64,000 nt of DNA from Escherichia phage MiataMamis. Positions 55,690 to 55,920 of this stretch are shown here, in pieces (the stretch's first letter is position 1; every line of letters starts with the position of its first letter). The notes beneath the pieces were generated by a model that was given only the letters and a program-made list of their open reading frames with translations, was not told where the DNA came from and searched no databases. The stretch lies in the sequence record PP925834.1. The stretch is one strand, 5' to 3'. A program made the position numbers and the translations under genes.

Positions 55690-55920
55690 CACACATAAAC
55701 TTTATCCAAACTCGCGCGGGAGGCTCTCAACCGACTCCTTACGGCGCTGGCAAGCTTTCGTCGGTGGTCCACATTAGTGCTCGGCCTTTGGCCTGCGCTA
55801 TCGCTTCGCTCCCACACATGTTAACAGACCTGCATGTATGCACTTCTGTTATTGTGTGCACCAAGGAGGCCCGGCATCTCGCCCCTCGTAGGCGAGTGCC
55901 AATGAAGGGCCGACACTACC
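55690..55920. ncRNA. second GC-rich structured island (candidate ncRNA or origin-associated structure)
   Basis: ~230 bp with no ORF of 60 aa or more; several perfect stems (GGCC-TTT-GGCC, TGCAT-GT-ATGCA, CTCGC..GCGAG, GGCCC..GGGCC long-range); TTATCCAAA at 55702-55710 resembles a DnaA box. Confidence 0.35.

Follow-up and report, generated by a model that had tools for sequence, protein, structure and literature searches.

Introduction

G4-type ssi signals, or primosome assembly sites, consist of stable hairpins that flank a short single-stranded motif near a replication origin, and the sequences of the hairpins themselves are free to vary. The CI RNA of P4 and the C4 RNA of P1 and P7 are small structured immunity RNAs of satellite and plasmid prophages; they derive from a non-coding leader and exert their effect by way of short complementary repeats. 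Iteron origins such as lambda ori, P1 oriR, and RK2 oriV come with accessory AT-rich and GC-rich blocks. In PhiTE, a Pectobacterium phage related to rV5, pseudo-ToxI RNA repeats mimic type III antitoxins; RNAs of the ToxI type are made of tandem, near-identical 36-nt repeats.

Here we analyze a GC-rich island in Escherichia phage MiataMamis (PP925834.1), using a 64,000-nt stretch of its DNA that we refer to as the window. The source is an rV5-like E. coli myovirus of the genus Vequintavirus. The genome paper on rV5 reports no origin and marks a "non-coding" box without analysis (PMC3606486). Our own searches of the literature on rV5 origins, non-coding RNAs, satellites, and transcriptomes returned nothing, and for the genus Vequintavirus as a whole no transcriptome was found.

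Judged from comparative sequence data, the island is a conserved, non-coding, modular string of small hairpins, hereafter the array. Like G4-type ssi signals, it takes up a few hundred non-coding bases near an origin and combines hairpins with a short fixed linker; unlike them, it is bracketed by a promoter-like site and a terminator in the probable satellites described below, holds a near-invariant 24-nt loop, and is built of re-assorted cassettes. With the P4 CI and P1 C4 RNAs it shares the character of a structured non-coding element of the satellite or plasmid kind, but it has no Rfam match, no complementary target set was found for it, and it also occurs in a virulent helper. As at lambda ori, P1 oriR, and RK2 oriV, an initiator gene, phased iterons, and an AT-rich block lie beside the island, which, unlike the blocks of those origins, has no credible DnaA box, is conserved independently of the initiator, and has stems that co-vary. 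Its likeness to the PhiTE locus would lie in being a non-coding RNA locus of a related large virulent myovirus and in mimicry within a genetic conflict, whereas its cassettes are all different hairpins. We rejected a ToxI-like antitoxin RNA because the island lacks tandem near-identical repeats; none was found in 55553-55920, the only arrays detected being the iterons and T-rich runs. By analogy, the element would work most like the immunity or decoy RNAs of satellites and plasmid-prophages, or like origin-proximal sets of ssi hairpins.

A GC-rich non-coding island in rV5-like phages

Across 3.7 kb around the locus, about 120 Escherichia phages assigned to Vequintavirus, the genus of rV5-like myoviruses, match the window at 98-99% identity. 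As a reference for conservation we used the most divergent relative, L010 (IMGVR_UViG_3300010279_000001), a 137-kb viral contig. The locus is part of a leftward gene run, in which a 660-bp non-coding gap between the ORFs at 54974-55552 (-) and 56213-56563 (-) holds the GC-rich block. The features of this region are:

54974-55552, - strand: 192-aa ORF at the left edge of the gap; small ORFs and then seven tRNA genes lie further left
55689-55695, + strand: junction motif CCACACA, whose first copy stands here at the 5' boundary of the array
55702-55710, + strand: TTATCCAAA, a DnaA-box-like site with one mismatch, judged a chance match
55713-55775, + strand: cassette A, the head (covariation; plasmid match of ~84%)
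55775-55818, + strand: cassette B' (folds and motif position; 87% identity to L010)
55819-55863, + strand: cassette X (inverted repeat I4)
55864-55917, + strand: cassette G, the tail (covariation; 85% identity to plasmid NZ_CP020521.1)
55918-56055, + strand: AT-rich block, 0.31 GC (context)
56056-56140, no strand assigned: four iterons GTGTCCGTATCACGGACAG, spaced 22, 21, and 21 bp (context)
56213-56563, - strand: 116-aa winged-helix initiator-like protein, by PHROG match (context)
Rightmost of the leftward run, before the 116-aa winged-helix gene: polynucleotide kinase and phosphoesterase genes

A first-pass annotation of this DNA had described 55690-55920 as a GC-rich block without a plausible ORF, and both statements hold. 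GC content is 0.51-0.58 across 55600-55900 versus about 0.40 in the flanks, and the block adjoins an AT-rich stretch (0.31 GC) followed by the four 21-22-bp repeats at 56056-56140. We rejected a protein-coding reading because the overlapping short ORFs have no Pfam or PHROG match and their frames are disrupted by indels in relatives, with 1-nt insertions and one 1-nt deletion falling within the block in close relatives. Modules of the block also occur elsewhere in re-assorted order. A scan for tRNA and tmRNA genes found seven tRNAs at 52859-53674 and none inside the island.

The locus also matches no described RNA family. In the Rfam search that had been proposed for it, only tRNAs reach threshold when the window is compared with Rfam 15 at gathering scores, and under relaxed thresholds the best match in 54050-56250 is rli43, at 22.9 bits versus a gathering score of 100. 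We likewise rejected mimicry of CRISPR repeats (types I-E and I-F), for which the best p was ~0.01-0.017 before correction for eight tests; the alignments do not preserve the hairpin half of the repeat, and the phage match falls in the variable lead segment of the island.

The array is present in one copy per genome in 118 phage records. Exact scans with the 18-mer GGCGCTGGCAAGCTTTCG gave 59 matches in public genome contigs, all by chance, and 87 in metagenome contigs, six of them true (four rV5-like phage contigs and two satellites). In viral contigs, the 19-mer CGGCGCTGGCAAGCTTTCG, which is the 18-mer plus one base, gave a single true match, and a gapped scan for three copies of CCCACACA recovered CRISPR arrays and coding tandem repeats and no comparable array. 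By these searches, the array appears only in rV5-like E. coli phages and in the 13-kb plasmid-like elements described below.

Several other features of the window and its relatives were noted. Eighteen records labeled "Campylobacter phage" (MG0656xx) are 98-99% identical to E. coli rV5-like phages over the locus; the one inspected, MG065655.1, is placed in Vequintavirus and bears the flag UNVERIFIED, and the host label of these records is doubtful. The phage tRNA cluster includes a 99-nt tRNA-like gene with a long insertion at 53104-53202 (-), which ARAGORN assigns a four-base anticodon and other records call "tRNA-OTHER". Another GC-rich island, at 54140-54380, contains a 44-nt core, ctattacccgcgcttcggctcgaccttgttacaggttggctgg (54245-54288), with matches of about 86% in some 460 T4-like phages. 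In NC_054935.2, the one such record examined, the match falls within a gap without annotation next to denV. No E. coli genome matched the core, which folds with a z-score of only -0.7 and may represent an element, regulatory or RNA, common to unrelated groups of myoviruses.

The island as a string of hairpin cassettes

Aligning the island with the plasmid regions resolves the phage array into the order [CCACACA]-A-B'-X-G. Each unit comprises one to three short hairpins followed by a C-run and ACACA, usually CCCACACA, and the junction motif between cassettes is (C)CCACACA. CCACACA is enriched in the window, with 22 copies found versus 11 expected; it also precedes cassette A in satellite arrays (L007 and L008).

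Cassette A opens with an invariant GCGCGG(G)AG leader, followed by a helix (55728-55735 paired with 55760-55767) that closes a 24-nt loop, TCCTTMCGGCGCTGGCAAGCTTTC. The loop contains a 3-bp inner hairpin and one variable position (A or C), and the cassette ends in the junction TCCACAT. A pseudoknot helix in this cassette, GGGAG/CTCCT, was considered and rejected: one of its pairs is broken in L010, and the helix is otherwise invariant and therefore beyond the reach of covariation. In cassette B', the hairpin at 55775-55800 has GGCC-TTT-GGCC at its core and, read on the + strand, a U78.G97 wobble in mid-helix; between it and CCCACACA at 55811-55818 lies a short linker. The hairpin of cassette X (55822-55851) pairs AACAGA with TCTGTT and includes TGCA-TGTA-TGCA. 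Cassette X is variable and dispensable: phages C2 and Murica have lost half of it to an 18-nt deletion. Cassette G begins with AAGGAGG and has an outer helix (55868-72 with 55907-11), an inner helix (55873-83 with 55891-900), and a 7-nt loop.

Parts of these cassettes recall ribosomal RNA sequences of the host. Read in reverse complement, the linker CCCACACA is identical to boxC of the E. coli rrnB leader, TGTGTGGG. In some satellites the match reaches 13 nt (CCCACACAGATTG), an extension that is not kept from one junction to the next. The 3' end of 16S and the loop of cassette A have CTCCTTAC in common. We treat these resemblances as leads rather than findings: the matches are short (E = 0.003 to 2), the search space was tiny, and the motif had been noticed beforehand.

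Compensatory changes point to selection for folding

The first-pass annotation had proposed multiple local and long-range stems in the block. By energy alone, the block is unexceptional: its minimum free energy has a z-score of -1.64 on the + strand and -1.93 on the - strand, no more than its composition predicts. No long-range stem found support. We accept the four local hairpins as real on the strength of covariation, not of energy.

In cassette A, the helix CAACCGAC/GTCGGTGG of the phage becomes TTGCTGCC/GGCAGCGG in the plasmids. Three of its pairs are altered on both sides and all are still Watson-Crick, while the 24-nt loop differs at one position; in controls with the partner columns slid by 1-3 positions, the number of such pairs falls to zero. 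Cassette G has two pairs altered on both sides, with 100% of cells paired and zero such pairs in the slid controls. The five pairs of A and G together represent one historical contrast, the single split between phage and plasmids. In cassette X, A55828C occurs together with T55845G in L010, giving one compensatory pair, and in the three-hairpin cassettes of the satellites (types C and E) compensatory changes affect 7 of 14 pairs, again with zero in slid controls. The alternative that the first-pass annotation had left open, that the block encodes something structured, is thus strengthened by compensatory base changes in cassettes A, G, and X and in the satellite cassettes, and the pattern indicates that the hairpins are under selection for folding. 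In the related plasmids, the promoter-like site and canonical terminator on either side of the array, both on the + strand, lend it further support.

Sequence conservation is highest in cassettes A, B', and G. Identity to L010 is 90% in cassette A, 87% in B', and 90% in G, versus 84% in the neighboring 192-aa coding sequence, 78% in the left spacer, 70% in the lead segment with the DnaA-like site, and 68% in cassette X. With A, B', and G at 87-90% against 84% for coding sequence and 70-78% for the spacers, these three cassettes show purifying selection.

The DnaA-box-like site behaves differently. The 9-mer TTATCCAAA is indeed present at 55702-55710 on the + strand, as first described, one mismatch from the consensus TTATNCACA, but the significance attached to it does not survive. 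The window has 81 matches to TTATNCACA with at most one mismatch, versus 74 +/- 8 expected; in relatives the same position reads TCATCCAAG, TTATCCGAA, TTATCAAAA, or TTAGTCAAA; and the lead segment that holds it is 70% identical to L010, where cassettes A and G reach 90%, and of the segments compared just one is less conserved. There is no cluster of boxes, only this single one-mismatch site at a density no higher than chance. The argument from a DnaA box therefore fails on both frequency and conservation.

Related arrays in probable plasmid satellites

When 5,426 complete E. coli genomes were searched at high sensitivity, the island matched plasmids only, and the lack of any chromosomal match led us to reject a host-derived fragment as its source. 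Two pieces of the island, at about 84% identity, lie in small E. coli plasmids of 13.3-13.7 kb and in one of 39.6 kb, a record that holds three array copies. The elements noted, of ~13.2-13.9 kb, were L006 (NZ_CP020521.1), L004, L005, L007-L009, L091, L103, and L224-L227. Their structural genes, an incomplete set, code for major capsid, Dit-like, tape measure, and tail-completion or neck proteins; alongside are an HTH_36 Rep of ~290-300 aa with iterons and divergent promoters with ATTGTCAA boxes in repeated copies. Among the elements examined, neither annotation nor gene calling gave a terminase, portal, sheath, or tube gene. Three proteins have homologs encoded in the window: identity is 50% between the Dit-like protein and the product of 36504-37127, 45% between the neck protein and that of 43537-43959, and 25% between the tape measure and that of 37901-39619. 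Because their structural genes are related to the phage's own, the 13-kb elements are probably plasmid-maintained satellites of Vequintavirus. The plasmid capsid family comprises 18 clusters, on contigs of ~13.4-14.3 kb, and its named members are all from E. coli. A literature search found no paper describing these plasmids.

The island is the only non-coding stretch common to phage and plasmids. The plasmid arrays read A-B-C-F-G, H-A-B-T, A-B-F-T, A-B-C-T, A-B-D-E-T, A-B-C-D-E-T, and A-B-C-D-T, and a second series begins with an alternative head, A' (A'-F-T, A'-C'-D-T, and A'-C''-E'-T), for which a search against phages returned no match. Only cassettes A and G are common to phage and plasmids. 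The element T is a canonical intrinsic terminator of the + strand, with an 11-bp stem and a 7-nt loop followed by TTTCATTT. It lies exactly at the array end in L007 and L009, and, L004 apart, the other satellite arrays examined all have this hairpin there as well. A promoter-like site on the + strand, TTGTCA-16-AATTAT, is found ~220 nt upstream in the satellites.

An initiator-iteron module exchanged beside the island

The 116-aa protein matches phrog_12838, "replication initiation protein", with E = 2.5e-80, and three other initiator PHROGs more weakly; against Pfam HTH_36 it scores 24.5 bits versus a cutoff of 25. The N-terminal domain of the plasmid Rep is ~25% identical to it. Within the AT-rich block, a long AT hairpin at ~55946-56009 (fold z = -1.5, weak) precedes a T-run at 56014-56046, and the block could be a + strand stop for an array transcript, an unwinding element, or both. 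Plasmid repeats fall into at least four sequence types by eye, and every case examined places the array first, an AT- or GC-rich block second, and the iterons third. GC skew was tried as an origin marker and rejected as uninformative, because its minimum at ~57.5 kb falls on a switch in gene orientation (PMC3606486).

Comparison with L010 separates the island from this module. Between L010 (1960-2770) and window positions 55918-56563 the whole replicator module has been exchanged, while the flanking genes and the array are kept. The initiator of L010 is a 143-aa winged-helix protein, 27% identical to that of the window, its repeats are different (ATCTGATGCA and ATATGTATC types), and its AT block and iterons are unrelated to the window's (34-35% identity). 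This swap looks like a natural allelic replacement of origin specificity. Initiator and iterons therefore appear to be a cognate pair, forming an origin or at least an autoregulated replicator module, because they were replaced together.

The suggestion that the neighboring locus resembles an origin is thereby reinforced: the initiator PHROG match, the four phased iterons, the AT-rich block, and the co-replacement in L010 all agree, and on sequence the locus has the phased direct repeats, AT-rich block, and likely cognate initiator of an iteron-type origin. The GC-rich island, which had been drawn into the same origin, does not belong to its specificity. It is kept at 87-90% in L010 although iterons and AT block are unrelated, and because it is unchanged across the swap we place it outside the specificity module.

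The junction motif recurs near the initiator gene. A copy of CCACACA on the - strand at 56580-56586 immediately precedes the Shine-Dalgarno sequence of the initiator-like gene (CCACACAAGGAG...ATG), and by eye L010 has the same arrangement at ~2785-2795, before its 27%-identical initiator (CCACACAGGA...ATG). The match is short and the motif had been noticed beforehand, and we regard it as a lead.

Strand and molecule

Several signals would fit a small-RNA gene read from the + strand: the promoter-like site and terminator of the satellites, terminator-like sites in L010, and, weakly, the AT hairpin with T-run of the window. In L010, terminator-like hairpins with T-runs on the + strand follow directly after cassette G (4 versus 0.7 expected), in the place of the window's AT-rich block. 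In addition, the mid-helix G.U of cassette B' on the + strand would be C.A on the - strand.

Signals within the phage are sparser. A scan for sigma-70 promoters on the phage + strand found none; the one extended -10 candidate, TGGTATAGT at 55638-55646, was noticed by eye and is missing from the divergent relatives L157 and L010; and at the 3' end of the array in the window, the AT-rich hairpin with T-run fails a terminator scan. Assigning the strand from the fold energy of each cassette was tried and rejected as contradictory. Cassette B' folds better on the + strand (-13.9 versus -11.8 kcal/mol) and cassette F on the - strand (-33 versus -22 kcal/mol). The substitution T55765C, in L157 and L010, gives a wobble on the - strand only.

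From these observations we infer an RNA, its strand, and a factor acting on it in trans. In the reading that we tentatively put first, at somewhat short of an even chance, the array would be a stable structured RNA transcribed from the + strand and recognized by a phage factor. Such an RNA would be antisense to the surrounding leftward genes and would end at the T-run on the edge of the AT-rich block. The hairpins would serve as nuclease-resistant spacers that need only to fold, and the functional parts would be the invariant loops of head A and tail G together with the single-stranded CCCACACA linkers. Their reader would be a factor encoded by the phage genus, either a protein or a complementary RNA containing UGUGUGG. 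Satellites, which carry the same head and tail cassettes, would mimic the phage RNA or exploit the same factor.

Alternative readings

The alternative that fares best, though we consider it unlikely, is that the hairpins form in single-stranded DNA and make up a priming or loading array for the adjacent origin. Once that origin had opened, SSB-free hairpins would expose the linker CCCACACA (on the other strand, TGTGTGGG), at which the phage's primase-helicase, of the T7 gp4-like kind, could enter or prime, and satellites would have copied the head and tail cassettes so that the helper replisome replicates them. Stems that co-vary freely around a fixed linker are what one would expect if any stable hairpin suffices. 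Such a role alone, however, leaves the near-invariant 24-nt loop of cassette A unexplained, and it does not need the terminator with T-run at the satellites' array end or the promoter-like site upstream. The array stands beside an iteron origin in every context examined (the window, L010, and plasmids with at least four repeat types), but this closeness weighs little, as the 13-kb plasmid has a single non-coding block and the adjacency in the phages goes back to one ancestral arrangement. On the + strand, GNA-type loops of three bases (GAA, GTA, GGA) are frequent; they make unusually stable DNA hairpins, fit DNA at least as well as RNA, and would suit this model. So would the gp4-type primase-helicase that rV5 encodes (PMC3606486).

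A second possibility, quite improbable in our estimate, is that the - strand is the functional one and that the array acts in cis within the leftward operon, as a structured leader or an intergenic element ahead of the 192-aa gene. There it would govern read-through, stability, or translation, and its UGUGUGGG linkers could pair with the CCACACA at 56580-56586 near the initiator Shine-Dalgarno sequence. The - strand is probably transcribed here, because all flanking genes point leftward and no - strand terminator intervenes, and the whole block folds slightly better on it (-92.5 versus -82.0 kcal/mol), as does cassette F. The CCACACA directly before the initiator ribosome-binding site, also seen by eye in L010, fits the proposed pairing. 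The satellites, whose - strand genes also lie downstream of the array, speak for this model in that respect and against it in others: divergent promoters separate their array from those genes, their terminator works only on the + strand, and they have no homolog of the 192-aa gene. The wobble in cassette B' favors the + strand. The 192-aa gene also appears, by eye, to have its own promoter-like and operator-like region at 55573-55625, in which our tools found only the inverted repeat I22 and no sigma-70-like site. That repeat, 12 bp with arms ATAGAAAAACTC and GAGCTTTTCTAT (92%), spans 55573-55614 between the array and the 192-aa gene, has an operator-like look, and is highly conserved, L010 included.

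It is very improbable that the island is a pac site, a duplex DNA site for the helper's packaging enzyme at which CCCACACA boxes bind the small terminase and which satellites copy in order to be packaged. Compensatory changes in intrastrand pairing are unexpected for a duplex protein-binding site, and several satellites lack A and G and carry head A', which has no phage match, instead. The model would account for the island being the sole non-coding stretch common to phage and plasmids, for the absence of terminase and portal genes from the plasmids examined, and for the three array copies of the 39.6-kb record. The rV5 genome is described as circularly permuted (PMC3606486). Such permutation would imply headful packaging from a pac site.

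Finally, a duplex GC-rich origin component whose DnaA box recruits host DnaA next to the unwinding block is scarcely credible: the layout resembles that of iteron origins with AT- and GC-rich blocks such as RK2 oriV, and TTATCCAAA is there, but the box occurs at chance frequency and is not conserved, the block stays constant when initiator and iterons are replaced, and a duplex role does not require co-varying stems.

Discussion

The array is a non-coding, modular element under selection for folding, common to phage and plasmids and independent of initiator and iteron specificity. Our preferred reading remains a structured + strand RNA recognized by a phage factor. A further step, possible though on the unlikely side, is that the array is a helper-specificity module in an undescribed conflict or partnership between Vequintavirus and its satellites. 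The hairpin-cassette RNA of Vequintavirus, or exposed single-stranded DNA, would then be read by a phage-encoded factor, which satellites carrying matching A and G cassettes, or head A' for another helper, would sense, exploit, or jam. The interchangeable middle cassettes would diversify under the conflict.

If this reading holds, the island would be a conserved structured element under clear selection that lies outside any known family. It would stand next to a candidate origin, consisting of initiator and iterons, whose specificity module is swapped between relatives. The rV5-like phages are widely used as typing and therapy candidates, and we found no replication origin, regulatory RNA, or satellite described for them. 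The array would also provide a handle on an apparently new family of plasmid-maintained satellites of a virulent myovirus, and, as the element common to both, it is the obvious place to look for recognition between helper and satellite.
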